A stretch of 64,000 nt of DNA from Kiritimatiellia bacterium. GTDB taxonomy: Bacteria > Verrucomicrobiota > Kiritimatiellia > RFP12 > DVOR01. Both the position numbers and the translations under genes were made by a program. The DNA lies in NCBI GenBank assembly GCA_017531445.1, contig JAFXKZ010000001.1, forward strand, positions 68,534 to 132,533. The letters run 5' to 3'. Below, in pieces: positions 10,655 to 25,343 of this stretch (its first letter is position 1; the number at the start of each line of letters is the position of its first letter). Below the pieces are notes generated by a model. That model did no database searches. It was not told the DNA's origin and saw only the letters and a program-made list of their open reading frames with translations.

Positions 10655-12106
10655 TTAATTTTCGCTCTTCATTTGCGGGAAGAGGATGACGTCACGGATA
10701 CATTCGGTGCCGGTCATGAACATGACGAGGCGGTCAATGCCGAGCCCGAGTCCGCCCGTTGGCGGCATACCATATTCCAATGCTTCGACAAAGTCCTGGT
10801 CGGTAGGTTCTGCATCTGCTTCTACCTGATTGGCGAAAGCGGCGCGTTGTGCTTCGGGATCGTTCTGCTCGGTGTAGCCGGGGCAGAGTTCTTTGCCGGC
10901 AACAACAAATTCAAAAACGTCCACGAGCGACGGATCATCCGGGCAGGCTTTCGCCAACGGTACATACTGCTTGGGGATGCGCGTAACGAAGGTTGGCTGC
11001 CGGAGTGTGCTTTCAATCATCTTGTCGTAGACTTCGTGGGAAAGGGTAACCATGTCGGTGATTTCATCAACAAGTTCCAATCCTGCATCGGCGGCTCGTG
11101 CCCGTGCGGTTGCATAGTCAAGCTCAAACCAATCAGCTCCCATCTTCTCCTTGATGAGTTCTTGCTGCGTTACTTCGCGATACGGCGGTTCAAAGTTGAT
11201 GATTTCGCCGTTTTCGCCATAGGGCACCTGGCGTGTTCCGAGCACGGTATCGCAGAGATAAGGGAGCATTCCCTCGATGATGTTTTTCATCGACGTGCGA
11301 TCGCCATAGGCTTCATAGACCTCAAGAACGGTGAATTCGGGATTGTGTGTACGGTCAATGCCTTCGTTGCGGAAGTCCTTTCCGAGTTCAAAGACTTTGT
11401 CAAAACCGCCGACAATCAGACGCTTCAAGTAGAGCTCCGGAGCGATACGCAACACCATCTCGCGGTCAAGGGCGTTGTGATGCGTTACGAAAGGCTTTGC
11501 GGCGGCTCCGCCGGCCTGCCCCTGCATGATGGGCGTTTCCACCTCAATAAATCCTTTTGAGGAGAGGTAGTTGCGGATACCCAGAAGGATTTTGTGACGC
11601 TTGTCAAAGCGTGCCCGGCTTTCGGGATTGGACATCAAGTCCAGATAACGACGGCGATAACGCTCTTCGGTATCCTGCAATCCATGCCACTTTTCCGGGG
11701 GCTGGCGGATCGCCTTGGAGAGGAGTGTCCATTCTTTGACTTCCACCGTCTTTTCGCCTGCTTGCGTGGTGAAAAGGGTGCCGTGGACGCCGATAAAGTC
11801 ACCCAAGTCGAGCAGTTTGGCGGCGTTGTAGGCTTCTTCTCCCAAAACATCGCGTTTGAGCAGCACCTGAAAGGCATCGGTGCCGTCATTGAGATGAATG
11901 AACATCAGTTTGCCCATACGCCGTTTGGTCATGATACGTCCGGCGACAGAGGCGGCTTTTCCTTCTTCAAATCCTGCACGTACTTCGCTCAAGTTGCCTG
12001 TGCGCGGGAAGGCTTTCCCATAGGGCGCATAACCGAGTTCTGCGAGTTTACGGCGGTTTTCAATCCGTTGTGCGCGGTATTGATCGGGTGTCTTTTCCTG
12101 AGCCAT
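10655..12106 (-). CDS. lysS: lysine--tRNA ligase (class II)
   Basis: Full-length LysS-like sequence (OB-fold N-terminus, class II motifs FRNEGID...HNPEFT, GGLGLGIDRLVM). Start at MAQEKTPDQY, 10 nt after the tkt stop, with an AAGGAA RBS. Confidence 0.92.
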   Translation of the reverse strand: MAQEKTPDQYRAQRIENRRKLAELGYAPYGKAFPRTGNLSEVRAGFEEGKAASVAGRIMTKRRMGKLMFIHLNDGTDAFQVLLKRDVLGEEAYNAAKLLDLGDFIGVHGTLFTTQAGEKTVEVKEWTLLSKAIRQPPEKWHGLQDTEERYRRRYLDLMSNPESRARFDKRHKILLGIRNYLSSKGFIEVETPIMQGQAGGAAAKPFVTHHNALDREMVLRIAPELYLKRLIVGGFDKVFELGKDFRNEGIDRTHNPEFTVLEVYEAYGDRTSMKNIIEGMLPYLCDTVLGTRQVPYGENGEIINFEPPYREVTQQELIKEKMGADWFELDYATARARAADAGLELVDEITDMVTLSHEVYDKMIESTLRQPTFVTRIPKQYVPLAKACPDDPSLVDVFEFVVAGKELCPGYTEQNDPEAQRAAFANQVEADAEPTDQDFVEALEYGMPPTGGLGLGIDRLVMFMTGTECIRDVILFPQMKSEN

Positions 12107-12116
12107 GAGGCGTTCC

Positions 12117-14120
12117 TTACTTGGAAAGGTAGTCATTGATGAGGGCGGAGAGCCCCTCGACAGTGAAGCCGAAATATTCAGCGAGCTTGCCGGCTGGGCC
12201 CGAGGCTCCGAAGCCGCCCATGGTCAGCGTGGTGCCTTCATCGCCGATATAACGCTCCCAACCGAAAGCCGATGCCGCTTCCACCGCGATACGTTTCTTC
12301 ACGGAAGGCGGCAACACGCGCTTGCGATAGGCGGCGTTTTGCGCTTCAAAGAGTTCCCAACTCGGCATGGAGACCACACGCAGGTTGCGCCCGTCGGTCT
12401 GTGCTGCTTCGAGGGCGAGGCTGACCTCCGAGCCCGAGGCAATCAGGATCGCTTCGGGCGTTTTGTCCGGATTGCGCTGCCAGAGGATATACGCGCCCCG
12501 GGCGGTTTCATCGGCAGAGGGATAGACAGTGCGGTCGATAACCGGCAGGTTCTGACGCGAAAGGAGAAGCGCAGTCGGGCCATGTTTGCGGCTGAGGGCC
12601 ACTTCCCACGCCACGGCGGTTTCGGTGGCATCTGCCGGACGCAACACGCACATATTGGGCATGGCGCGCATGGCCGGAAGCTGCTCGATCGGTTCGTGCG
12701 TGGGACCGTCTTCGCCCACATAGAAGCTGTCGTGCGTCAATACGTAGATTACCGGAAGCCCCATTAACGCTGCAACGCGCATGACCGGACGGCAATAGTC
12801 GCAGAAAACAAAGAAGGTGCCGCCAAAGGTGCGCAACCCACCATGCACGGTGATGCCGTTCATGATTGCCGCCATCCCCTGTTCACGCACACCGAAACGG
12901 AAGTTGCGCCCGGTAAAATCGCCCTTGGCAATATCTCCCATCCCGTTGAGATAGGTCATATTGGAAGGCGCAAGGTCGGCACTGCCGCCCACAAGCCATG
13001 GGACGACCGGCGCAATGGCATTGAGCACTTTTCCGGAGGCTACACGCGTAGAGACAGGCTTACCATCCCATACCGGCAGATGATCTTCCAGATCTTCCGG
13101 CAGGGTGTTCTTGAGGCAGGCTTCCCATGCGGCTTTGAGCTTGATATCGGCAAAGGCAGCCTTCGCCGTGCGCTTCCAGGCATTGCGCACACGCTTCATC
13201 TTTGCTGCACGGGCGGCAAAGAGCGAACGCACGGCTTCCGGCACGACAAACGTTTCATCGGGATTGAAGCCGAGTGCCTGCTTGGTCAGGCGCAACTCTT
13301 CCGCGCCCAGCGGCGCACCATGGCAGGAGGCCGAGTCGGCCTTGTTGGGTGACCCTTTGCCGATGGTGGTTTCGCAAATCACGAGCACGGGTTTGTCTTC
13401 CGACTTGGCGGCCTTGCGCAACGTGCGGTCAATGGCGGCAATATCGTGCCCATCGCAAGTGAACACACGCCAGCCATACCCCTCAAAACGCTTTTTGGTG
13501 TCGTCGCTCATCGTGATGTCCACGCGTCCCTCAATGGAGATACGGTTGGAATCATAAAGGAGGATGAGTTTGTTCAAGCCCAGATTTCCGGCCATGGAGC
13601 AGGCTTCATGCGAGATGCCCTCTTCCAGATCACCATCGCCGCAGGTCACCCAGGTGCGGTGATCAACGAGCGTGTGCTCCGGCGTGTTGAAGCGTGCGGC
13701 CATCATGCGTTCTGCAATCGCCATGCCCACACCGTTGGCAATACCCTGACCGAGCGGACCGGTGGTCGTCTCGACCCCCGGCACAATGCCGTATTCCGGG
13801 TGTCCGGGCGTCTTGGAACCGAGCTGACGGAACTGCTTGAGGTCGTCCATTGAAAGCGCGTGTCCGGAGAGGTGCAACAGGGCATACAGCAACGAAGAAC
13901 CGTGCCCGCCCGACATGACAAAGCGGTCGCGATCGGCCCATGCCGGGTCGCTTCCGCAGAGTTTGAGGTGGCGCAGCCACAATACGGCGGCGACATCGGC
14001 CAAGCCCAACGCCACCCCCGGATGGCCGGAATTGGCACTTTGAACTTCATCAGCGGCGAGGCAGCGCAACGTGTTGGCTGCCAAAAGCATCTCGTTAAGG
14101 TCAAGTTTGCTCATGTGCAT
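12117..14120 (-). CDS. tkt: transketolase
   Basis: 667 aa with SGHPG, GPLGQGIANGVGMA, GDGDLEEGISHEA and THDSFYVGEDGPTHEPIEQ motifs. Confidence 0.95.
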   Translation of the reverse strand: MHMSKLDLNEMLLAANTLRCLAADEVQSANSGHPGVALGLADVAAVLWLRHLKLCGSDPAWADRDRFVMSGGHGSSLLYALLHLSGHALSMDDLKQFRQLGSKTPGHPEYGIVPGVETTTGPLGQGIANGVGMAIAERMMAARFNTPEHTLVDHRTWVTCGDGDLEEGISHEACSMAGNLGLNKLILLYDSNRISIEGRVDITMSDDTKKRFEGYGWRVFTCDGHDIAAIDRTLRKAAKSEDKPVLVICETTIGKGSPNKADSASCHGAPLGAEELRLTKQALGFNPDETFVVPEAVRSLFAARAAKMKRVRNAWKRTAKAAFADIKLKAAWEACLKNTLPEDLEDHLPVWDGKPVSTRVASGKVLNAIAPVVPWLVGGSADLAPSNMTYLNGMGDIAKGDFTGRNFRFGVREQGMAAIMNGITVHGGLRTFGGTFFVFCDYCRPVMRVAALMGLPVIYVLTHDSFYVGEDGPTHEPIEQLPAMRAMPNMCVLRPADATETAVAWEVALSRKHGPTALLLSRQNLPVIDRTVYPSADETARGAYILWQRNPDKTPEAILIASGSEVSLALEAAQTDGRNLRVVSMPSWELFEAQNAAYRKRVLPPSVKKRIAVEAASAFGWERYIGDEGTTLTMGGFGASGPAGKLAEYFGFTVEGLSALINDYLSK

Positions 14121-14151
14121 AAACCTCTTTTTAAGGCAAAATCAAGCACAT

Positions 14152-14180
14152 AGTATAACAAAAAGTCGCATAGTTCACAA
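14152..14180 (-). promoter_or_regulatory. putative tkt-lysS promoter (TTGTGA-N17-TGtTATACT)
   Basis: Minus-strand -35 at 14180-14175. Extended -10 at 14160-14152. About 30 nt upstream of the tkt ATG. Confidence 0.5.
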
Positions 14181-14359
14181 ACCGCTGCCGCGTAACGCAC
14201 TGAAAACAGGTGTCCATTCATGGTGAAAACCGCAGGTGTGCCTATTTATTTCGGGCGTAGCCATCACCGCGGTGAACCTCCGGGGAAAACGTGGCTGCCA
14301 GTGCTTCGCTCGTCCGGTGCTGTGGAAGCACACGTGTATGCCGGGGGAAAGTGAAAATG

Positions 14360-14455
14360 AACATGGGCGAAACTGCGCGGGAAGATGGGCGAGAGTGCAT
14401 GGGGCACTTGGGCGGAGTTCCTCGCGCACATGGGCGAAGTTGAAAACGAAGGTGG
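14360..14455. repeat. cluster of REP-like 11-mers (three ATGGGCGA copies) plus AAGTTGAAAACGAAGGTGG module
   Basis: AACATGGGCGA at 14360, AGATGGGCGA at 14383, ACATGGGCGA at 14428. The module at 14437-14455 is 18/19 identical to 35167-35185. Confidence 0.75.
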
Positions 14456-14613
14456 CCGTGAAACTTTTTCTTGTGGCGCGGCAACGGAAAAACGGGTGCG
14501 CCGTTCGCGCTTTCCGCTGCGGCAACGTTGCGCCCTGATAGCCTGCTTTGGAGGGGAGATGACGCTTGCTGTTGCGGGGAGGTTTTGATAACCTATCAAT
14601 GGTTACCGGTCAT

Positions 14614-14685
14614 AAAAAAGCCCCATACGGAGTACGTACAGGGAAGTCTTTGCGACTGCGGCATATAGCCTTGTTGTGAAAAGAC
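14614..14685 (-). ncRNA. tracrRNA: tracrRNA (predicted primary transcript, ~72 nt; weak residual anti-repeat homology extends to ~14710)
   Basis: Minus strand reads GUCUUUUCACAAC-AAGGCUAUAUGCC-GCAGUCGCAAAGACUU-CCCUGUACGuacucCGUAUGGGG-CUUUUUU. The first 13 nt are the perfect complement of repeat nt 1-13 (GTTGTGAAAAGAC). They are followed by an AAGG + GGC/GCC nexus-like hairpin, an AGUC/GACU hairpin, and a 9-bp hairpin with U6 terminator. Confidence 0.8.
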
Positions 14686-14691
14686 AGTGTT

Positions 14692-14721
14692 ATTGTAGAG
14701 GATTTTGCCCGGGACTGTCAA
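14692..14721 (-). promoter_or_regulatory. tracrRNA promoter (TTGACA-N18-TACAAT)
   Basis: Minus-strand -35 TTGACA at 14721-14716. -10 TACAAT at 14697-14692. Predicted +1 near 14685. The -35 lies 14 nt from the cas9 ATG and abuts its GGAGG RBS. Confidence 0.6.
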
Positions 14722-14735
14722 ACGGAGGCTTTAAG

Positions 14736-17700
14736 ATGAAGCGTTTAGGGATCGATTTGGGCACGTCGTCTTTGGGTTGGGCGATTCTGGATGATGAACG
14801 GATGTTTGCTTCACCAATAGGGGACGCGGCAACGTCTCCCATTGACTGCGGCGTGGTGATTTTCCCGGAAGGAATGGAGCGGGATAAATCGGATAATCTG
14901 AAATCTCCGGCGGCCTCACGGCGCAGTGCACGGGCGATGCGGCGGTTGATTTATCGCCGGAAATTGCGGAAGTTCCACCTACTCCAAGTGCTGATTGAAA
15001 ACGGTATGTGCCCGCTCAGCGCGGAGGGATTGGCAAAATGGAAGGCCGAAGGGTGCTATCCGGTGCAGGAAGAAGCTTTTATGGCGTGGGTGCAGGCGAG
15101 CAATGACCACAATCCGTATGCCGATCGTGCGGCGGCGGCAGAGCGGGCGGTTGACCCCTTGACGCTTGGGCGGGCCCTCTATCATATCGCGCAAAGGCGT
15201 GGCTTCAAGAGCTCAAAAAAGGAGCAGTTGGAGGCTTTGCCCGGAGAGAGCAAAGCCGGGAAAAATGGGAAGAACTCCACGGAAGCAACGCAAACGAAGC
15301 AGGCAATTGATACGCTCACGCAAGCACTGGAGGCGGAATCGCTCACGTTGGGGCAATATTTTTACAAGCTGTTTTTGGCGAATGCCGCAGCGATTGCCGC
15401 TACGGGAGAATCGGGAACCTCAGAGAGAATCATCGAACGGATTCGCGGACGCAAGACCGGACGCATTGAGCATTATCAGAAAGAGTTTGAGGTGATTGCG
15501 GAGAAACAAGCGTTATCGTTGGAATTAAAGGAACGCCTGGCCTCAATTCTTTTCTTTCAGCGTCCGTTGCGGATTCAGCGTCATACGGTCGGGTATTGCG
15601 CACTTGAAAAGGGAAAATCGGCCAGAAAATATCGCCGCTGCTTAAAGAGTCATCCGACGTTTGAATACTACCGTGCGCTTTGCTTCCTTAATAATTTGCG
15701 CGTGGGTGAGACGTTGCAAGAGGGGAAAGACCGATTGCAAAATGGCGAGGGCACTCCTTTGTCGGCGGAAGAGCGCGCCAAAGTATTGGAGGCTTTGTGC
15801 GAAAAAGATAATTGCACAGTGGAAGAACTTTTCGGGAAGAAAAAGTCGCCTTTGGGCAAAAAGGTCTATACCAATTACCGCCCCTCGGATGATGCTCCCG
15901 TGATGCCGATCCGGGCACGCTTTATGAAGTTGGGGATCCCGGAGGCTCAATGGCAGATGGCGTTGAATGCCGCCATGGATTTTGAAGACCTTGAAAAGTT
16001 GATGGTTTGGGCACAGAAGCCGGAAACCCTTGGGCTCGAACCGAAAGCTGCGCGCACCTTTGCCCGGATGCGCTTTTCGACAGATCGCGCCGATTACAGT
16101 CTCCATGCAATCCGGAAAATCATTCCTTATCTGGAGCGGGGGTTTACGCTGCGCAAGGCCACTTTCTGTGCAAAATTGGGTGACATCATCCCGGCGTTTG
16201 AAGAGAAGCGCGAGCAAGTGTTGCAGGGTCTGTGCGACTGTGAGCGGAATTACGCGGAAGAAAAGGCGCGCCGCGTGCCGGGTGGGTATGGAAAAGTGAA
16301 TCCGCTGGAGACCTACCATTACAAGCGTTATCTCGCCGCGCAATGGGAAGTTTCGGAAGAAGCCTTCAAGCAGTTGTATGTGGATCTCACCGAGACCGAT
16401 GAGGCGAATCCGGTGTTGCCTCCGGTGAATCTGGGCGCGATCCGCAATCCGTTGAGCTGCCGTTCGCTGACGGTGTTGCGGCGTTTGGTGAATGCCTTGC
16501 GTAAAACGGGGAAGATTGATGCCCAAACGCAGATTTTCATTGAATTGGCGCACACGGTGAACAGTGCGAATGATTGCCGTGCGATTGAGCTGTATCAGAA
16601 GGAACAGAAAGCAAAACGTGAAGAAGCCGCTGCCGAGGTGCAGAACATCATTGACGAGCATCATCTTTCCATTACCGTTAATGAAGATACGATTTTACGC
16701 TATTTGCTTTGGGAAGAACAGGAGAAGTGTTGTGTCTACACAGGGCAACCCATCAGCCAGAAAGCGATCTTCACCGACTGTGATATTGAGCATACCATTC
16801 CGCGTTCGCGCGGGGGAACGAATGAACTTGAGAACCTTACCTTGTGTTTTCAACACTACAATCGCAATGTGAAAAAGGGAAAACTTCCCTCGGAGTGTCC
16901 CAATGCCACAGAAGCGTGGTTCGACCCGGAGACGAAGGAAGAATATCCGGCGTTGCAGATAAGTAAACCCTTGAAGCAGTGGCGCGATGCGTTGCATGGT
17001 TTGCAGAAAAAATTGGAGAAAAAACCGAAACGCGGCGGTGATGTTTCGATTTACAATCAGCAACGCATCAAATGGCTGTTGAGCAAGCGCAAGAGGGACT
17101 ATCTGAAAAAGAAATTGGAGACCTTTACAATCACGCGTGACAAGGTGGAAGAAAAAAGCTTCATTCCCCGACAGATGGTAGATACCGGCATCATCACTAC
17201 GCAGGCTGTCAAGTTTTTGAAGAGCCGCTATCGGCACGTTTATACGCGCAACGGTGCTGTTACTGCTGCCGCCCGAAAAGCGTGGGGGATTCAGAAAGAA
17301 GATGAGAAAAAAGCGCGTGTTGACCACATTCATCACGCGGTAGATGCGTGTGTGATTGCGGCACTGGATCCGAAAGCCTTTACGGAAATCTGCACACAGT
17401 TGGGCAAAAATGAGAAAACTACGCGCTGGAATGCGGTTGTGCCGCCGCCATATGAGGACTTTGCACGGCGGATCAATGCGGCGACCGAAAGCGTGTTGGT
17501 GCGGCATTTGCCGTTGAATCGTCAGGTGCGTCCGATTGGTAAGCGGCGGCAACGGGTGCCGCTATCGGTGAAAAAGCAATTGAAGTTTGAGAAGAAGGCA
17601 CCTGCAAAAGCGCAAAGAACCTTGGTGGTGCGTGGCAGTTTGCACAATGATACGCTTTATGGAAAGATCAAAATTGCAGGTGAAGAAACCGTTGTTTTGC

Positions 17701-18428
17701 GCAAGACGATCTCCGCACTTGGCAATGACCTGAAGAAAAATGTGGCAAATGCGGTGGACAAGGCCGTAAGAGAGGCCTTAGAGCAACAGATTGCAACGTA
17801 TGAGGCTCAGGGCATTGCGGTAAAAGACCTGCCCAATCAACGTTATCACCTCCCCTCCGGAATCCCCATCAAAAAGATTCGCGTCAAAATCAGCAAGCCT
17901 AAAAATCCGGATGCACTCCGCGCACAAGCCTTCGCCCCCGATAAGCCCGTCTATGGTTCCGGAAGCGATGCTTTGTGTCTTGAAATCGTCCAGAATAATA
18001 AAGGGGTGAGCGTTCCAATCTATCGAACGCTTCTTCAGGAGGTAAAAGAAACTCGATCGGATGAAGAAAAACGTGCGGTATCTTTCAAAATTTATCCCAT
18101 GCAACTTGCGCTTACGTATGAAAAATCTCCGGACGAATTAAAAATGCTTTCCGGTCGGGAATTGAGTAAGCGACTCTATGTTGTCCGAAAGGTGACAGAT
18201 GATGGTAGAACGACGCTTTACTACCATCGGGAAGCACGACGCTCTACGGTGTTGGGTGAAGAATTAAAAGCGATGGGGAAAAACAAAGAGGGTGCCTCCA
18301 ATGTTAATTTTTCAAGCCCTGAACCATTGCTGCTGGTCACCAAAGGCGTCTTCCTGGAGCATATGCTCTTTGAAGGCGTTCACTTCACGTTGTCAATGGA
18401 TGGTAAAATCGAGTGGATTGATGATTAA
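14736..18428 (+). CDS. cas9: CRISPR-associated endonuclease Cas9, type II-C (1230 aa)
   Basis: RuvC-I MKRLGIDLGTSSLGWAIL, bridge helix SRRSARAMRRLIYRRKLRKF, RuvC-II IFIELAH, HNH CDIEHTIPRSRGGTNELENLTLC..NRNVKKG, RuvC-III HHAVDACVIA. GGAGG RBS at 14724-14728. The track ORF start at 14676 is rejected because it lies in the tracrRNA anti-repeat. Confidence 0.95.
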   Translation: MKRLGIDLGTSSLGWAILDDERMFASPIGDAATSPIDCGVVIFPEGMERDKSDNLKSPAASRRSARAMRRLIYRRKLRKFHLLQVLIENGMCPLSAEGLAKWKAEGCYPVQEEAFMAWVQASNDHNPYADRAAAAERAVDPLTLGRALYHIAQRRGFKSSKKEQLEALPGESKAGKNGKNSTEATQTKQAIDTLTQALEAESLTLGQYFYKLFLANAAAIAATGESGTSERIIERIRGRKTGRIEHYQKEFEVIAEKQALSLELKERLASILFFQRPLRIQRHTVGYCALEKGKSARKYRRCLKSHPTFEYYRALCFLNNLRVGETLQEGKDRLQNGEGTPLSAEERAKVLEALCEKDNCTVEELFGKKKSPLGKKVYTNYRPSDDAPVMPIRARFMKLGIPEAQWQMALNAAMDFEDLEKLMVWAQKPETLGLEPKAARTFARMRFSTDRADYSLHAIRKIIPYLERGFTLRKATFCAKLGDIIPAFEEKREQVLQGLCDCERNYAEEKARRVPGGYGKVNPLETYHYKRYLAAQWEVSEEAFKQLYVDLTETDEANPVLPPVNLGAIRNPLSCRSLTVLRRLVNALRKTGKIDAQTQIFIELAHTVNSANDCRAIELYQKEQKAKREEAAAEVQNIIDEHHLSITVNEDTILRYLLWEEQEKCCVYTGQPISQKAIFTDCDIEHTIPRSRGGTNELENLTLCFQHYNRNVKKGKLPSECPNATEAWFDPETKEEYPALQISKPLKQWRDALHGLQKKLEKKPKRGGDVSIYNQQRIKWLLSKRKRDYLKKKLETFTITRDKVEEKSFIPRQMVDTGIITTQAVKFLKSRYRHVYTRNGAVTAAARKAWGIQKEDEKKARVDHIHHAVDACVIAALDPKAFTEICTQLGKNEKTTRWNAVVPPPYEDFARRINAATESVLVRHLPLNRQVRPIGKRRQRVPLSVKKQLKFEKKAPAKAQRTLVVRGSLHNDTLYGKIKIAGEETVVLRKTISALGNDLKKNVANAVDKAVREALEQQIATYEAQGIAVKDLPNQRYHLPSGIPIKKIRVKISKPKNPDALRAQAFAPDKPVYGSGSDALCLEIVQNNKGVSVPIYRTLLQEVKETRSDEEKRAVSFKIYPMQLALTYEKSPDELKMLSGRELSKRLYVVRKVTDDGRTTLYYHREARRSTVLGEELKAMGKNKEGASNVNFSSPEPLLLVTKGVFLEHMLFEGVHFTLSMDGKIEWIDD

Positions 18429-19326
18429 ACGCACGGTCTGTTTCTCAAATCCGGGGACGCTTCGTCTTCATTTGCGCCAGCTCGTCTGGCGGGGTGAGGA
18501 TGCGCGGGAAACCGCTGTACCGATAGAAGATCTCGGTGTGTTGATTTTGGAGTCACCGTTAATCACGGTAAGCACGGCTTTGTTGCAGGCACTTACGGAA
18601 GCGTGTGTAGCCGTTGTGCTATGCGATGCGGCGCATTTGCCGTCAGGCTATTTACTGCCGCAGGCGTCGCATACGTTGGCAAGTCGCATCTTGCGTCAGC
18701 AGATTGAGCTTTCCGATGCACGGGCAGGGATGTTGTGGCAGCAGATTGTGATTGCCAAAATCCGGAACCAAGCCGCCGTGATTCGGAGCATGGATGCAAC
18801 AAAAGCAGAGGAACTGCTTCAGATGGCAGCGCAGGTAAGGCGGGGCGATGTGACAAACCTTGAAGCGCAAGCTGCCAGACGTTATTTTGAAGCGTTCCCG
18901 ATTCCGGAAGACGTTTTCCATCGGTCGCGGTACGGGACAATGCCGAATGCCGCGCTGAATTACGGTTATGCAATTCTACGTGCTGCCGTGGCGCGTGCGC
19001 TGGTGGGGTCGGGCTTGAATCCGGAATTGGGATTGCACCATCGCAACCAATACAATCATTTCTGTCTGGCAGATGATGTGATGGAGCCGTATCGTCCATT
19101 CGTCGATAGGATTGTTTTGGAGCATCTGGACACCTTTGAAAAGACGGAATATCCCACCAAATTGTCCGCGAAAGGGAAGCAATTGTTACTACCATTCCTG
19201 ACAATGGATGTGCAGCTTGGAGCGGCGACACGACCGCTTTTTAATGCACTTCAATTGACCTCCGCATCGTTGGTACGGTGTGTTTGCAATCAGCAAAAAA
19301 CGCTTGAACTCCCCTCAATTCCATGA
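18421..19326 (+). CDS. cas1: CRISPR-associated endonuclease Cas1 (type II)
   Basis: MIKRTVCFSNPGTLRLHLRQLVW... with typical type II Cas1 features (NAALNYGYAILRAAVARAL, GLHHRNQYNHFCLADDVMEPYRPFVD). The ATG overlaps the cas9 stop (ATGATTAA). Confidence 0.92.
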   Translation: MIKRTVCFSNPGTLRLHLRQLVWRGEDARETAVPIEDLGVLILESPLITVSTALLQALTEACVAVVLCDAAHLPSGYLLPQASHTLASRILRQQIELSDARAGMLWQQIVIAKIRNQAAVIRSMDATKAEELLQMAAQVRRGDVTNLEAQAARRYFEAFPIPEDVFHRSRYGTMPNAALNYGYAILRAAVARALVGSGLNPELGLHHRNQYNHFCLADDVMEPYRPFVDRIVLEHLDTFEKTEYPTKLSAKGKQLLLPFLTMDVQLGAATRPLFNALQLTSASLVRCVCNQQKTLELPSIP

Positions 19327-19670
19327 GTGAAGTCGATTTCTCTGCGATCAATCATTACAAAGCGATGTGGCTTTACGCACTCTTTGACTTGCCGACCGAA
19401 ACGAAGAAGCAGCGGAAAAACGCCGCTCTTTTCCGAAAAGGACTTCTGCAGGACGGCTTTACAATGTTTCAATTCTCGGTTTACATCCGCCACTGTGCTT
19501 CCCGGGAAAATGCCGAAGTCCATATACGGCGTGTTCGCGCAATGACGCCGGAAGAAGGAAGAGTCGCGATTATAGCGGTAACCGATCGCCAATTTGATCA
19601 GATGGTTATTCTCTATGGCGCAAAAGAAAAACCGCCGCCGCCTGCGCCTCTGCAACTCGAACTCTTTTAA
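19323..19670 (+). CDS. cas2: CRISPR-associated endoribonuclease Cas2
   Basis: 115 aa. YKAMWLYALFDLPTETKKQRKNAALFRKGLLQDGFTMFQFSVYIRHC is a typical type II Cas2. ATGA overlap with cas1. Confidence 0.9.
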   Translation: MSEVDFSAINHYKAMWLYALFDLPTETKKQRKNAALFRKGLLQDGFTMFQFSVYIRHCASRENAEVHIRRVRAMTPEEGRVAIIAVTDRQFDQMVILYGAKEKPPPPAPLQLELF

Positions 19671-19679
19671 CTTTTCACT

Positions 19680-19726
19680 CAAAAAAGAACGCTTTCAACT
19701 CCATTTCAGGGAGATTGAAAGCGTTT
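19680..19726. terminator. bidirectional hairpin terminator between cas2 and the array
   Basis: 11-bp perfect stem AACGCTTTCAA (19687-19697) / TTGAAAGCGTT (19714-19724). On the plus strand it is followed by TTTT. On the minus strand it is followed by the better TTCTTTTTT tract. Confidence 0.65.
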
Positions 19727-19782
19727 TGAGATTTGATTTCACCTCTTAACTCATTCATACAATAAAGAAATATGACTTCAAT

Positions 19783-22588
19783 ATTGTATCAAATCCCAAG
19801 AGGGAGTCTTTTCACAACTATTCAACAATCATATTCAACTCCTTTTCTATTGTATCAAATCCCAAGAGGGAGTCTTTTCACAACTCCGTGGCGCATTTCG
19901 TTTTGATTCTCCGCATTGTATCAAATCCCAAGAGGGAGTCTTTTCACAACAGTGAGTCTTGCGTAGGAGTTTTAGAAACTATTGTATCAAATCCCAAGAG
20001 GGAGTCTTTTCACAACTCTGCGTAAATGTCAAGAAGATTCTGCTCCATTGTATCAAATCCCAAGAGGGAGTCTTTTCACAACTGCATAAGATAGGCGGCG
20101 TTGGTCGCGGAGATTGTATCAAATCCCAAGAGGGAGTCTTTTCACAACTCTTCGCGCACGAAATGAAAACTATCAACGATTGTATCAAATCCCAAGAGGG
20201 AGTCTTTTCACAACTGAGCGCATCCACTTCCTCTTGACGCGGCCATTGTATCAAATCCCAAGAGGGAGTCTTTTCACAACCACCAAGTAAATAATGGCAA
20301 AAAAATAGCATTGTATCAAATCCCAAGAGGGAGTCTTTTCACAACCTTCTCTTTCTCCCCGCGTTGGGGTAGTTGATTGTATCAAATCCCAAGAGGGAGT
20401 CTTTTCACAACTGGAACGCCCCGAACGCATCACTGTCCAGAATTGTATCAAATCCCAAGAGGGAGTCTTTTCACAACCACCTGGACGGGCAAGAACATCC
20501 CGTTGGCATTGTATCAAATCCCAAGAGGGAGTCTTTTCACAACGGTGTTTCAGTTCGGGCGATGCTTGAGAATATTGTATCAAATCCCAAGAGGGAGTCT
20601 TTTCACAACCAAAAGACATCCATCTGCACATCCCATGAGATTGTATCAAATCCCAAGAGGGAGTCTTTTCACAACCGGATACCGCCTATAAATACAGCGC
20701 GGAAGATTGTATCAAATCCCAAGAGGGAGTCTTTTCACAACCATGGCTGGGGACAACATTACCAAAGCACGATTGTATCAAATCCCAAGAGGGAGTCTTT
20801 TCACAACATACCTGCTTCGTTGCCGAACAGTCTGCCGATTGTATCAAATCCCAAGAGGGAGTCTTTTCACAACCATAAGGACAAACTTTAGCAGTTGCGG
20901 ATAATTGTATCAAATCCCAAGAGGGAGTCTTTTCACAACTGTCACTGGTGGCGCCGACCACGTATTTTCATTGTATCAAATCCCAAGAGGGAGTCTTTTC
21001 ACAACCTTCTCCAACTGCTGAATTTTTTTCAGTAGATTGTATCAAATCCCAAGAGGGAGTCTTTTCACAACCACTGCTGTTTTTCTCCTCCAGCAGTAGC
21101 AATTGTATCAAATCCCAAGAGGGAGTCTTTTCACAACCCGCGGCGCGTCTTGGACGCATATCAAAAAATTGTATCAAATCCCAAGAGGGAGTCTTTTCAC
21201 AACTTTTTGGCGTAACTGTGAAGTGTCAAGAAAATTGTATCAAATCCCAAGAGGGAGTCTTTTCACAACGGCCCGGGCAGAAAATACGTTATTTTGCTTA
21301 TTGTATCAAATCCCAAGAGGGAGTCTTTTCACAACGTTGCATGGCGTGAAGCGGTTCGCGCCTGCATTGTATCAAATCCCAAGAGGGAGTCTTTTCACAA
21401 CTGGGCACGTGGTCATCGATGCAAGCCTCCGATTGTATCAAATCCCAAGAGGGAGTCTTTTCACAACCGATATACCATTTGTTGTATCTTTTGACGAATT
21501 GTATCAAATCCCAAGAGGGAGTCTTTTCACAACCGATATACCATTTGTTGTATCTTTTGACGAATTGTATCAAATCCCAAGAGGGAGTCTTTTCACAACT
21601 AGTTCTCGCTGCGCCTCCCTACGGCACACATTGTATCAAATCCCAAGAGGGAGTCTTTTCACAACTACAGGTGCGTGGCACTAAGAAGTCGCTTCATTGT
21701 ATCAAATCCCAAGAGGGAGTCTTTTCACAACTGTACGCCGCCGTGGGAGACCCATGCGGAATTGTATCAAATCCCAAGAGGGAGTCTTTTCACAACGAAG
21801 AAGTAGGTGGTGTTGCGTATGTGTTAATTGTATCAAATCCCAAGAGGAAGTCTTTTCACAACTAATCGATTATTAACTCTTCTTTTCCGGACATTGTATC
21901 AAATCCCAAGAGGGAGTCTTTTCACAACAGTTTGCGCAGTTTGCACGTAACTGTTTGCATTGTATCAAATCCCAAGAGGGAGTCTTTTCACAACCGCATT
22001 GAACTTCAAAAAAATAGAACGCCTATTGTATCAAATCCCAAGAGGGAGTCTTTTCACAACAACGAGTGGGTAGACTGCGAGGCCACCATTATTGTATCAA
22101 ATCCCAAGAGGGAGTCTTTTCACAACTAGGCGGATTGGCGAAGCGTAGAGATTTCTATTGTATCAAATCCCAAGAGGGAGTCTTTTCACAACTCTTATTT
22201 ATTAGATTTGTTCGGCCCGGAAATTGTATCAAATCCCAAGAGGGAGTCTTTTCACAACTTCTATTCTGATGAATACGCAGGCTTGCTCATTGTATCAAAT
22301 CCCAAGAGGGAGTCTTTTCACAACCCGGTGACAGGGTCAATGCCGTTTTCGTCAATTGTATCAAATCCCAAGAGGGAGTCTTTTCACAACCCAAAGCAAT
22401 GGCAATTAAAGAAAATGCTAATTGTATCAAATCCCAAGAGGGAGTCTTTTCACAACGTATGTCATCACATCTAATGCCGCAGCCCTATTGTATCAAATCC
22501 CAAGAGGGAGTCTTTTCACAACTTTTGCGTTTGACCTCAAGTGCGCCCGCCCATTGTATCAAATCCCAAGAGGGAGTCTTTTCTCAGT
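19783..22588 (-). CRISPR. CRISPR array with 43 repeats and 42 spacers (36-bp repeat; 40 spacers of 30 bp, 2 of 29 bp)
   Basis: Plus-strand repeat is ATTGTATCAAATCCCAAGAGGGAGTCTTTTCACAAC with 66-bp periodicity. Every unit was parsed by hand. R32 (21827-21862) carries one SNP. Terminal R43 (22553-22588) has 3 changes in its outer 5 nt. Spacers 26 and 27 are identical. Minus-strand orientation is inferred from the canonical II-C GTTGT...ACAAT form, tracrRNA complementarity and the TGaTACAAT embedded promoter. Confidence 0.97.
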
Positions 22589-22765
22589 AGTTTTCTCAGT
22601 AGAGAGTAATAAAATTATTAATCTATAAATAAATAATGGAGGGGGACAAGGAGTGAGATCGGTAACTTATGGCAAAAGGGTGTGTGCGGCAATGCTTTTC
22701 ATGAGAAAGGAGGTTCTTTTATGGAGCGGCTGAATGCGTTATTCTTTTTTAGACGGGGTGGTTTG

Positions 22766-22774
22766 TGGTATAAT
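22766..22774 (+). promoter_or_regulatory. putative leuS extended -10 (TGgTATAAT)
   Basis: Read directly, about 35 nt upstream of the leuS ATG. No clear -35. Confidence 0.4.
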
Positions 22775-22808
22775 GTACAGCGTTTTTTTACTTGAAGGAA
22801 GGTCTATC

Positions 22809-25343
22809 ATGATGGAAGAAAAATATCCGTTTCACGCGATTGAACCCAAGTGGCAGAAGTTTTGGGATGAGAATGGGACGTTTCGCTGTGATGCGCAGGA
22901 TGATTCCCGTCCGAAGTTTTATTGCTTGACGATGTTCCCTTATCCCAGTGGTCATATGCACGTGGGGCATGGGCGTAACTACATCATGGGGGATGTGATT
23001 ACGCGTTATAAGAAGATGACGGGGTATAATGTGCTTTCGCCAATGGGATGGGACAGCTTCGGATTGCCGGCGGAGAATGCAGCCAAGAAGTTTCATGTGC
23101 ATCCACACAAGTGGACGATTGAGAATATTCAGGAGATGAAGCGACAGGTGCGCAGTTGGGGGGTCGGTTACGATTGGGAGCGTGAAATCGCAACATGCCA
23201 TCCGGATTATTACAAGTGGACGCAGTGGGTGTTCTTGCAGGCATATAAACTGGGGGTGGCCTATCAGAAAGAATCTCCGGTCAACTGGTGCCCGCTGTGC
23301 ACGAATCTGGCGAATGAGGAAGTCACGGCTGATGGACATTGTGATCGTTGCGGACGTCCGGTAGAGAAGAAGAATCTCAAGCAATGGTTCTTCAGAATCA
23401 CTCAGTATGCCGATCGATTGTTAAAGGATTTGGATTTACTTGAGGGGTGGCCGGAGAAGGTTCGCCAGATGCAGGCCAACTGGATTGGAAAATCAGAGGG
23501 GGCAAAGGTCGTCTTCAAAGTGACCGAGACCGGGGATGAATGCCCGGTATATACGACGCGCCCGGATACGATTTTCGGTGTGACGTTTATGGCAATCGCG
23601 CCGGACAATCCGCTGCTGCAAAAGTTGCTTCCCGGTTCTGAGCGGGAAGCGGAAGTGCGCACATTCATTGATAAGCTTGCCAATATTCCTGCTGCGGAGC
23701 GTTTCTCTGATGCCACGGCGAAAGAGGGCGTCTTTACCGGTTTCCACGTGACCAATCCCTATAATGGTGATCGCGATATTGAATTGTGGGTGACGAATTA
23801 TGTAGTCTCTGATTCCGGAACGGGAATTGTGATGGCGGTGCCAACGCATGATCAGCGAGACTGGGACTTTGCCACGAAGTATGATATCGCCAAGAAGATT
23901 GTCATTCAAAACGCTGAAGGCACTCTTGATTTGGCAACGATGACGGCGGCCTACGTGGAAGATGGCGTATTGGTGAATTCCGGTGCCTTTGATGGCATGG
24001 CCAATCGTGAGGCAATTAAGGCAATCATCGCCGATGGCACAGAAAAGGGATTTGCCGAGGCGACAACCAATTTCCGTATTCGTGATTGGAATGTGGCGCG
24101 TCAACGTTATTGGGGGGCACCGATTCCGATTGTGCACTGTCCGCACTGTGGTGCAGTGCCTGTGCCGGAAGATCAACTGCCCGTGCGTCTTCCGGATGAT
24201 GTGGATTATGATGGTGATCAGGGGAATCCTCTGGCGCGGCATGAAGGCTTTGTTAATACTACCTGCCCGAAGTGTGGTGCACCGGCAAAGCGTGAGACCG
24301 ATACGCTCGCCCAATGGTTGTGCTCGTGCTGGTATTTCTTGCGTTACATTGATGCCCGGAATGAGGCTGCGCCCTTTGATAAGGCATTGGTGGACAAGTG
24401 GATGCCAGTGGATCAGTATATCGGTGGCGTAGAGCATGCGGTATTGCACTTGCTCTACTCACGCTTTGTGGTAAAAATCCTCAATGATGCAGGGGCATTG
24501 GACTGTGTAGAGCCGTTTAAGGCGTTGTTTACGCAGGGGATGATTTGCAAACGTTGCGAAAAAGATGATGGCAAATACGTCAAGGGCAAACTCTACAAGA
24601 TGTCGAAATCGGTGGGGAACGTTGTCTCTCCGGACGAACTGATTAAGACGTATGGTGCAGATACTGTTCGCCTGTACACGCTCTTTATCGGACCGCCGGA
24701 ATTGGATGCCGAGTGGCAGGACGCTGCAGTGCAGGGGCCCTATCGCTTCCTTTGCCGTCTGTGGAAGCGTGCTTATGATGCCAAGTCCATTGTACCGGAG
24801 CAGGATGTCGCGGTGCAGATCGACGCACTTACGCCGGTGGAACGCGATCTTTATCGCAAGTTGCACCAGACTTTGGCCGGTGTGACTGATTCCATTGAGC
24901 ACGGATTCCGTTTCAATACGGCCATTGCGCAGTTGATGGAATTGATGAATGTTCTGGATAAAGCCAAGATTGATGCGACTTCGTCCGATGCGGCGAAGGC
25001 GTTACTGCGTGAGACGATTGTAACAATCGCGCGGATGATGGCTCCGATTACGCCGCACATTGCCGAAGAGTTGTGGCAGGCGTTTGGCTGTACACCTGCC
25101 GGTGTGATGAGTGCCGGTTGGCCCACAGTGAATGCGGAAGCCTTGAAGGAAGATTCGCTTCAAATTATTCTGCAGGTGAATGGCAAGATGCGCGGTAAAA
25201 TCATGGTGCCCGCAGGCATCGGCAAGGAGGAATTGGAGGTTCTCGCCCGTGATTCTGCTGATGTGAAGCGCTTTACCGATGGACAAACCATCGTCAAAGT
25301 GATTGTGGTGCCCGGGAAGCTCGTCAACATCGTGGTGAAATAA
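22809..25343 (+). CDS. leuS: leucine--tRNA ligase
   Basis: [25 protein letters not shown] (HIGH motif), KMSKS, CP1 editing domain. Start at the internal Met of track ORF 22734. Confidence 0.95.

Follow-up and report, generated by a model that had tools for sequence, protein, structure and literature searches.

The cas9 gene of a compact type II-C CRISPR-Cas9 module in a gut PVC-group bacterium is preceded by a tracrRNA gene on the opposite strand, and comparison of the locus with its relatives suggests that the cas9 leader probably runs antisense through the whole of this gene. The nested layout is real, and the nearest relatives share it; the start of cas9 transcription in the window (the whole 64,000-nucleotide stretch of DNA that was analysed) is a predicted one. 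Taken for the window alone this is a modest result, in which the annotation is correct and the regulatory hypothesis reasonable. The features on which the argument rests are collected in Table 1.

Table 1. Features of the cas9 locus in the window and predicted promoters of related loci (L numbers).
Feature	Position	Strand	Sequence or size	Score or basis
tkt (transketolase), upstream neighbour of cas9	12117..14120	-		Pfam Transketolase_N, Transket_pyr, Transketolase_C_1
tkt promoter	14180..14152	-	TTGTGA-17-TGnTATACT	13.9 bits
Example of a further-upstream site	14440-14467	+	TTGAAA-16-TGnAACTTT	
Best candidate cas9 promoter	14566..14594 (-35 14566-14571; TG 14586-87; TAACCT 14589-94)	+	TTGCTG-17-TGaTAACCT	9.1 bits; extended -10
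Candidate of the earlier note	14572..14599	+	TTGCGG-16-TATCAA	overlaps the 14566..14594 site
tracrRNA gene	14614..14685	-	~72 nt	promoter and terminator scan
tracrRNA terminator	stem 14643..14621; T-run 14619..14614	-		strong, one-way
tracrRNA anti-repeat	14685..14673	-	13 nt	
Repeat-like segment, would be in plus-strand leader	14673..14685	+	GTTGTGAAAAGAC	complement of anti-repeat
Window's version of gap site	14674..14703	+	TTGTGA-18-GAGGAT	5.8 bits; 51/100 shuffles as good
tracrRNA promoter	-35 14721..14716; -10 14697..14692	-	TTGACA-18-TACAAT	11/12 consensus matches
cas9 ribosome-binding site	14724..14728	+	GGAGG	read from sequence; 2 nt from tracrRNA -35 box
cas9, type II-C	14736..18428	+	1230 aa	translation; Pfam RuvC_III, HNH_4
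cas1	inside ORF 18292-19326	+		Pfam Cas_Cas1
cas2	19323-19670	+		Pfam CRISPR_Cas2
CRISPR array	19783..22588	-	43 repeats of 36 nt, spacers 29-30 nt	
Upstream promoter, L002		+	TTGACA-16-TGtTAAAGT	15.7 bits
Upstream promoter, L103		+		14.2 bits
Upstream promoter, L003		+	TTGCCT-17-TATAAT	14.5 bits
Upstream promoter, L008		+	TTGCTC-17-TATAAT	12.7 bits
Upstream promoter, L016 and L020		+	TGGTATAAT	12.7 bits
Upstream promoter, L029		+		16.0 bits
Gap promoter, L034 and L024			TTGTGA-18-TATAAT	14.3 bits; 0/100 shuffles as good
Gap promoter, L022				14.2 bits; 0/100 shuffles as good
Gap promoter, L026				11.7 bits
Gap promoter, L011				12.0 bits

The assignment to type II-C follows the gene content, since the module contains cas9, cas1 and cas2 only, with csn2 and cas4 absent, and the tracrRNA anti-repeat is a 13-nt exact complement of the CRISPR repeat. 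The three cas genes are contiguous, and the array begins 113 nt beyond cas2. Because of the anti-repeat pairing, the crRNA sense of the array is placed on the minus strand, where every repeat ends in TGaTACAAT. Cas9 shares 41-69% identity with its relatives, and the ATG at 14736 is its true start, with the RuvC-I motif GIDLGTSSLGW beginning at residue 5 and an N-terminus that is kept among relatives. The host shares its GTDB genus with a MAG labelled Candidatus Spyradenecus, and RNase III is encoded in all three same-genus genomes. The upstream gene had been read as tkt on the strand opposite cas9, and its Pfam transketolase domains bear this out.

By position-weight score, the tracrRNA promoter (15.8 bits) is the top site on either strand of 14100-14760, and its transcript is predicted to start at G14685. 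The tracrRNA should be about 72 nt long because the T-run of its minus-strand terminator ends at 14614, and this terminator is the sole terminator-like call when both strands of 14000-15000 are scanned. Apart from the anti-repeat, the RNA contains a nexus hairpin (GGC-UAUAU-GCC), a stem-loop (AGUC-GCAAA-GACU) and the terminator hairpin; its fold has a z-score of -3.3, and 1 of 200 shuffles is equally stable. The family to which it belongs sits upstream of cas9 in ~60 loci and shows compensatory changes at 8 of 11 base pairs. Its anti-repeat covaries with the repeat, both changing together in L015 and L018. A search of 12000-23000 against Rfam at E values up to 1 gave no family match, leaving this tracrRNA family unmatched there. 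The -35 box of the tracrRNA promoter lies 14 nt before the cas9 ATG (14722-14735) and adjoins the GGAGG, and relatives keep a TTGACA- or TTGACG-like box adjoining the cas9 ribosome-binding site. These and the other tracrRNA and cas9 sequence features reported in the earlier note were all found where it had placed them, including the repeat-like segment that a plus-strand leader would contain, which matches the crRNA-sense repeat exactly over its initial 13 nt.

Across the tkt-cas9 spacer (14100-14760), the top plus-strand sigma70-like site is TTGCTG-17-TGaTAACCT, from which cas9 transcription is predicted to start near 14601. Its score of 9.1 bits, obtained with a matrix of E. coli frequencies that may not suit this phylum, is by itself not above chance, as 15 of 100 dinucleotide shuffles equal it. 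No plus-strand site of at least 6 bits lies between 14600 and the cas9 ATG. The site proposed earlier, TTGCGG-16-TATCAA, is present and is weak, as had been said, but is not the best one: its hexamers reach 3.2 bits (without the -7 T), far below the overlapping site, and we rejected it as the cas9 promoter. No consensus-resembling sigma-54 site (GG-N10-GC) was found in 14540-14740. Two small plus-strand ORFs (14236-14538 and 14385-14588) match no Pfam family and lie in a region unconserved in relatives; they were treated as non-coding, and there is no ORF with a Pfam family between the candidate promoter and cas9. The tracrRNA hairpin should not stop a plus-strand transcript, because the only terminator-like call is on the minus strand. 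On the plus strand the hairpin has only AAGUCUUUG after it and its G-U pairs turn into C-A mismatches, and termination there was rejected, with no plus-strand terminator called in 14000-15000. Masking of the ribosome-binding site by leader structure was rejected as well, the fold of 14601-14770 being no stabler than shuffles (z-score -0.6).

The weakness of every plus-strand site in the spacer (at most 9.1 bits) could also mean that cas9 is scarcely expressed or is decaying and lacks a functional promoter of its own, or that it uses a rare start further upstream, of which Table 1 gives an example; the degeneration of the window's -35 and -10 relative to the promoters of L002 and L103 points the same way. 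We consider this very unlikely, since all three cas genes are intact and 42 uniform spacers are present in the array, and any start further upstream would yield the same antisense leader.

A leader antisense to the whole tracrRNA is the best reading because the promoters of relatives sit upstream and the cas9-adjacent gap lacks a promoter in L002, L003, L008 and L103 (2.7-4.5 bits). An upstream plus-strand promoter is the state of the window's Cas9 clade, which has 100/100 support: four of the six other rows of this clade (L002, L003, L008 and L016) have plus-strand promoters of consensus grade on the upstream side of the tracrRNA terminator. Promoters of the same quality and placement are found in L103, close to L002, and in L020, both of them close relatives left out of the Cas9 tree on frame grounds, and likewise in L029, which branches off first in the sister clade. 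All seven score 12.7-16.0 bits, with 0-3 of 100 shuffles as good, and in every case the distance upstream of the terminator is at most 62 nt. Those of L002, L103 and L008 (12.7-15.7 bits) fall at the same few bases as the weak site of the window, the promoter-terminator distance being -22 to -23 in these loci and -19 in the window, and the window's site aligns with the L002 and L103 promoters. Thus, the claim that the cas9 leader is antisense to the whole tracrRNA is supported by the upstream promoters of relatives, although the window's own site does not rise above chance.

In the sister clade, L022, L024, L034 and L026 have a strong plus-strand promoter within a 53-61 nt gap (11.7-14.3 bits; 0-5 of 100 shuffles as good). 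Its -35 is the TTGTGA of the anti-repeat complement and its -10 adjoins the tracrRNA -10. A cas9 promoter placed likewise in the 50-nt gap of the window, overlapping the tracrRNA promoter in a two-way, divergent fashion, would give a leader of 20-35 nt that never crosses the tracrRNA gene, and coupling would then amount only to two polymerase orientations competing for one site. Bacteria commonly have two-way promoters (PMC10268837, PMC12825309), and the window retains a TTGTGA -35-like box at 14674-14679. However, the -10 at the needed spacing is GAGGAT, about half of the shuffles do as well as the resulting site, and the closest relatives have strong upstream promoters in place of one in the gap; we regard a gap promoter in the window as unlikely. 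L022, L024 and L034 have usable -35 and -10 elements on each strand with a shared -10 region, and the window does not. The Bacteroidales relatives have a wider gap with separate promoters, and the window has neither a wide gap nor a two-way promoter. The earlier statement that there is no room for a cas9 promoter beside that of the tracrRNA goes too far, since the sister clade does fit one there; the window's own gap contains no strong one (5.8 bits). An upstream promoter matched by at most 5 of 100 shuffles is present in 8 of 21 dereplicated compressed-gap loci versus 3 of 43 wide-gap loci, and loci with higher upstream scores tend to have lower gap scores (Spearman -0.52, with related loci not independent).

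One tracrRNA/Cas9 family thus has three promoter layouts, namely separate divergent, overlapping two-way, and convergent upstream of the tracrRNA gene, and therefore none of them is required for function. That related clades work with two other layouts would fit a neutral origin, in which the nested layout arises simply because a self-contained mobile module (promoter, tracrRNA, cas9, cas1, cas2 and array) is tightly packed and interference or pairing is too small to matter. The similarity of the window to L002 and L103 begins approximately at the promoter and the flanks further upstream are unalignable, as expected at a module boundary, and the convergent overlap would be only ~84 bp. Against this, the layout is kept even where the Cas9 proteins share only ~50% identity, a 15.8-bit promoter faces one of 9.1 bits with footprints that, at standard sizes, would be expected to overlap at both ends, and interference has been measured elsewhere in such a configuration (PMC5001618, PMC4731013). 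A purely neutral layout seems to us rather improbable.

Under the convergent reading, which we prefer, the most likely start of cas9 transcription is near 14601, at the weak extended -10 promoter, and the transcript would cross ~135 nt containing the tracrRNA terminator, body and promoter and then the ribosome-binding site. The stronger tracrRNA promoter would fire in the opposite direction from ~14685, with transcription stopping at 14614. With these two starts the promoters would therefore be convergent, their start sites ~84 bp apart. Considering standard footprints, a polymerase at the tracrRNA promoter should cover the DNA of the cas9 ribosome-binding site and start codon, and one that is terminating the tracrRNA should lie over the -10 box and start site of cas9. 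The expected result is that cas9 transcription is held down, by occlusion and head-on collision, in proportion to the activity of the tracrRNA promoter. At this length the overlap is short, and the contribution of collisions by themselves may be small. The leader that gets through would be a perfect complement to all 72 nt of the tracrRNA, and free tracrRNA could thus pair with it to form a duplex that RNase III could cut. The presumed outcome is that Cas9 is kept scarce relative to tracrRNA. As a whole, the best explanation, which we believe and doubt in about equal measure, is that a weak cas9 promoter converges with a strong tracrRNA promoter and cas9 is damped. That the nested layout measurably lowers or couples Cas9 expression is offered more tentatively.

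A further and quite improbable speculation is that the leader of cas9 itself senses free tracrRNA and sets Cas9 synthesis by the tracrRNA-to-Cas9 ratio. Cas9-bound tracrRNA would be folded and protected, so that surplus tracrRNA alone would pair with the 72-nt leader, and cutting of the duplex by RNase III would set Cas9 synthesis, down or up. If true, an RNA-guided nuclease and its cofactor would be kept in stoichiometric homeostasis with no protein regulator involved.

The natural control of Cas9 levels has been detailed for S. pyogenes-type II-A systems, in which a long tracrRNA represses Pcas (10.1101/2020.05.21.102756), and our literature search found no comparable account of how Cas9 levels are set in type II-C. 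Work in Neisseria suggests that the Cas9-to-RNA balance has biological consequences (PMC12477760). If the nested convergent layout damps or tunes cas9, the locus would have a second control route of its own, one that works in cis, does not depend on a guide match and moves along with the module when it is transferred horizontally. The three layouts in one family provide a natural experiment, and the question is testable with simple reporter constructs.

In N. meningitidis and C. jejuni, whose loci are of type II-C, the tracrRNA has a different position. The likeness of these loci to the window lies in the gene content cas9-cas1-cas2, an array transcribed opposite to the cas genes and a -10-like repeat end, as given in the accessible part of PMC3737331, where no tracrRNA gene nested antisense in a cas9 leader is described. 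In gut microbiomes, tracrRNA genes immediately preceding cas9 have been seen in the same general layout (Fremin and Bhatt, 10.1101/2020.03.31.018887; PMC4911918), and the Alistipes branch, represented by an Alistipes shahii-like locus (PMC4911918), falls within the window's tracrRNA/Cas9 family. Both papers report the layout in passing, neither locating the cas9 promoter nor offering a mechanism, and a full-text literature search found no study of convergent or antisense tracrRNA/cas9 regulation.

In S. pyogenes type II-A, the tracrRNA and cas9 promoters stand back to back and diverge, with overlapping -35 boxes (PMC12302355), and Cas9 with a long tracrRNA isoform carrying an 11-nt guide to Pcas represses in trans (10.1101/2020.05.21.102756). 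The window resembles this system in having a tracrRNA directly upstream of cas9 on the opposite strand, and in the idea that tracrRNA and cas9 expression are wired within the locus. The back-to-back layout is impossible in the window because the tracrRNA -35 is only 14 nt from the ATG. Autorepression by a long tracrRNA was rejected for the window: the sole other minus-strand site in 14000-15000 is the tkt promoter, leaving no second tracrRNA promoter and no long isoform to carry a guide, and no array spacer matches 14500-14760 over at least 10 nt. Unlike the control in S. pyogenes, the coupling predicted here would act in cis, through convergent transcription and antisense pairing.

Parallels are found among convergent promoters and engineered antisense promoters (PMC5001618; Brophy and Voigt, PMC4731013), where the weak promoter loses output through occlusion, collision and 'sitting duck' removal. 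As in these systems, a strong promoter would face a weak one over a short overlap. They differ in that their transcripts and effect were measured, whereas one promoter of the window is only predicted, and in that the strong transcript of the window is stopped by a terminator shortly before the weak promoter. In the RnaG/icsA system of Shigella flexneri, a small RNA is antisense within the 5' leader of its target and acts by both interference and leader pairing (PMC2879508); the antisense small RNA gene in a 5' leader and the convergent promoters are like those proposed for the window. RnaG, however, has no other job, whereas the antisense RNA of the window is the essential cofactor of Cas9, and pairing with the leader would therefore also remove the cofactor.

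A complete type II-C CRISPR-Cas9 locus lies in the window; the table below collects its features together with promoters of homologous loci (L numbers) fetched from other genomes (G numbers). Judged by kinship, the host is a gut bacterium of the PVC group, and a homologous locus is found in a same-genus MAG labelled Candidatus Spyradenecus, Lentisphaerota. RNase III is present in 3/3 same-genus genomes and was not found in the window's own assembly, which is half-complete (50%). The orientation of the array relative to cas9 switches between clades of this single Cas9/tracrRNA family: it is transcribed against the cas9 direction in the window, L015, L018, and L022-L034, and in the cas9 direction in the L016 group (L016, L017, L020, L114, and L118) and in Bacteroidales loci. 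The cas9 of L003 (G021, same genus as the window) has one in-frame TAA, and its twin L015, taken from the same MAG's public record, came up as a match over the full length; a pseudogene or else an assembly error is possible. Some contigs with a Firmicutes bin (Christensenella, Anaerovoracaceae, Clostridium, and Faecalibacterium; L071, to be set against L072, and also L023, L044, and L053) carry Cas9 loci of the family as well. L072 has a Bacteroidales bin, yet it and L071 are near-identical tree neighbours (branch lengths 0.008 and 0.0065), suggesting that one was mis-binned or that transfer was very recent.

Features of the window locus and upstream promoters of related loci
Feature	Position	Strand	Sequence or content	Score
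cas9	14736-18428	+	1230 aa; RuvC_III, HNH_4	
cas1, cas2	downstream of cas9			
CRISPR array	19783-22588		43 repeats, 36 nt each	
Transketolase gene (tkt)	upstream neighbour of cas9	opposite to cas9	own promoter	
tkt promoter	14180..14152	-	TTGTGA-17-TGnTATACT	13.9 bits
tracrRNA promoter	-35 14721..14716, -10 14697..14692	-	TTGACA-18-TACAAT; 11/12 matches	15.8 bits
Best plus-strand site	14566-14594	+	TTGCTG-17-TGaTAACCT	9.1 bits
Further plus-strand site	14440-14467	+	TTGAAA-16-TGnAACTTT	8.1 bits
Gap site	14674-14703	+	TTGTGA-18-GAGGAT	5.8 bits
Site of the earlier note	14572-14599	+	TTGCGG-16-TATCAA	3.2 bits
L002 upstream promoter			TTGACA-16-TGtTAAAGT	15.7 bits
L103 upstream promoter			TTGACA-18-TAAAGT	14.2 bits
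L003 upstream promoter			TTGCCT-17-TATAAT	14.5 bits
L008 upstream promoter			TTGCTC-17-TATAAT	12.7 bits
L016, L020 upstream promoter			TGGTATAAT	12.7 bits

The tracrRNA is predicted to start at G14685 and opens with a 13-nt anti-repeat, GUCUUUUCACAAC, which is the exact complement of nt 1-13 of the crRNA-sense repeat. Its body consists of a GGC-UAUAU-GCC hairpin and then an AGUC-GCAAA-GACU hairpin, its 3' end of a 9-bp terminator (14643..14621) with six T after it, and the fold beats 199 of 200 shuffles. Members of this RNA family are encoded upstream of cas9, against its direction, in ~60 of the 94 fetched loci (Kiritimatiellota, Lentisphaerota, and Bacteroidales), and upstream of cas9 also in most of 30 further metagenome loci; a 28-member alignment contains compensatory changes at 8 of 11 predicted pairs. 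Anti-repeat and repeat vary together, GTTGTGAAAAGAC with GTCTTTTCACAAC in the window and GCTGTAAAAAGAC with GTCTTTTTACAGC in L015 and L018. Given these features and its promoter, the identification of the tracrRNA is secure. Folding of the free tracrRNA to minimum energy predicts a pairing between GUCUUU of the 5' anti-repeat and AAAGAC in the first stem-loop (14645-14685, minus strand), so that the guide-binding end could be partly self-masked before crRNA or Cas9 binding. In L006 (G059), the tracrRNA, ~40-140 nt upstream of the cas9 ATG, has three tandem nexus-like units before the anti-repeat (GACTACGGCATGTAGTCAC twice, then ACGACTACGGCATATAGCC); such a threefold Cas9-binding hairpin within one tracrRNA is unusual.

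As claimed earlier, the tracrRNA -35 element ends 14 nt before the cas9 ATG and next to GGAGG (14724-14728), which is 2 nt away, and tkt, upstream of cas9, is on the other strand. This ATG is the real start, since the N-terminus is conserved and the RuvC-I motif starts as early as residue 5. Back-to-back divergent promoters of the S. pyogenes type are impossible at the window locus, because the cas9 start site would land within the ORF. The earlier note also held that no room is left for a cas9 promoter in the gap; the short spacing is real, but the statement is too strong, as the sister clade has a strong promoter in the same gap.

All sigma70-like sites in 14100-14760 were scored with a position-weight matrix built on E. 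coli frequencies, which may not fit this phylum. No plus-strand site exceeded chance in the window alone: the best was equalled by 15 of 100 dinucleotide shuffles, and the gap site by 51 of 100. TTGCGG-16-TATCAA, proposed in the earlier note as the best, albeit weak, candidate cas9 promoter, is indeed weak, its -10 missing the conserved final T, and it is surpassed by the overlapping TTGCTG-17-TGaTAACCT. No sigma-54 site was found in 14540-14740, and the scan called no plus-strand terminator at the tracrRNA terminator; the tracrRNA terminator works one way. At 14361-14461, the tkt-cas9 spacer has three imperfect copies of a motif with ACATGGGCGAA, which are REP-like intergenic repeats in a region without conservation in relatives.

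For comparison across the family, a dereplicated set of 64 loci in which the tracrRNA gene is located upstream of cas9 was scored in zone U (150 nt upstream of the tracrRNA terminator) and zone G (the gap from anti-repeat to ATG). The window's Cas9 clade (100/100 support) and its close kin have a consensus-quality plus-strand promoter in U, each of those tabulated being equalled by 0-3 of 100 shuffles. Three loci with stop codons in the assigned frame were left out of the Cas9 tree; L103, a close relative of L002, and L020, a close relative of L016, were both dropped on frame grounds. An upstream promoter (16.0 bits) is present too in L029, which branches off first in the sister clade. The gaps of L002, L103, L003, and L008 score 2.7-4.5 bits, that is, no promoter. 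From -10 to the A-run of the terminator there are 22-23 nt in L002, L103, and L008 and 19 nt in the window. Aligned directly, TTGCTG and TAACCT of the window coincide with the L002 and L103 hexamers. These upstream promoters lie in otherwise unalignable flanks, and no ORF separates them from the tracrRNA gene. Read most simply, they would drive cas9 through the tracrRNA gene. L123 has a tracrRNA and gap near-identical to those of L016, yet lacks the upstream TGGTATAAT promoter and has a different sequence abutting the terminator; it looks like a natural promoter-loss variant, usable as a comparison.

Upstream promoters equalled by no more than 5 of 100 shuffles were found in 8 of 21 loci with a compressed gap (66 nt or less) as against 3 of 43 wide-gap loci, descriptive counts from related, not independent, loci; outside Bacteroidales they were counted by eye in 1 of 13 wide-gap loci. 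Among compressed loci, again related ones, U and G scores are negatively correlated (Spearman -0.52). In the sister clade (L022, L024, L026, and L034; L027 and L011 are similar), a strong plus-strand promoter occupies the same gap of 53-61 nt. It takes TTGTGA from the complement of the anti-repeat as its -35, has a -10 (TATAAT or TACAAT) directly next to the opposite-strand tracrRNA -10, and scores 11.7-14.3 bits (0-5 of 100 shuffles equal), with predicted starts 28-37 nt before the ATG. By sequence, it is an overlapping divergent promoter, a type now known as common (PMC10268837, PMC12825309). Bacteroidales members have a longer anti-repeat and a gap of 84-126 nt; TAnnTTTG-type promoters were seen by eye, in L035 as separate ones facing each way and in L040 as one facing the tracrRNA. 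Upstream promoters in the window's clade, gap promoters in the sister clade, and separate promoters in Bacteroidales, along with the negative U/G correlation, indicate that the family uses three promoter layouts, sorted by clade. The window appears to belong to the convergent layout, with a degenerate promoter.

In this layout, the cas9 mRNA would start near 14601, with a ~135-nt leader that contains the repeat-like GUUGUGAAAAGAC and is complementary to the entire tracrRNA; the leader has no special fold (z-score -0.6 against shuffles). With convergent start sites ~84 bp apart, three cis effects would be expected from established transcriptional-interference work (PMC5001618, PMC4731013). The cas9 promoter should be occluded, its -10 and start site lying under polymerase that terminates the tracrRNA at 14614; the strong tracrRNA promoter should hold waiting polymerase across 14665-14740, an obstacle to polymerase coming from the cas9 promoter; and elongating polymerases would collide head-on. 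Once transcribed, tracrRNA that is free could also pair with the cas9 leader. Overall, Cas9 expression is predicted to be low and dominated by the tracrRNA.

A full-text literature search found no study of convergent or antisense tracrRNA/cas9 coupling. Fremin and Bhatt mention in passing the expression of gut tracrRNAs that lie upstream of cas9, even when antisense to the predicted cas9 mRNA (10.1101/2020.03.31.018887), and an Alistipes shahii-like family member has been drawn with the anti-repeat upstream of cas9 (PMC4911918). The window is one member of a recurrent, unstudied layout; new here are the clade-by-clade comparison of three promoter solutions within one family and the corrected cas9 promoter hexamers. 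In S. pyogenes, Pcas and the promoter of the long tracrRNA are back-to-back and divergent, with -35 regions common to both (PMC12302355). The tracr-L circuit, in which this long isoform represses Pcas, is ruled out in the window, since a single tracrRNA promoter was found in 14000-15000, no guide-like match (10 nt or more between an array spacer and 14500-14760) turned up, and the promoter arrangement is different. Mechanistically, RnaG/icsA comes closest: there, too, the leader of the target harbours an antisense small RNA gene (PMC2879508).
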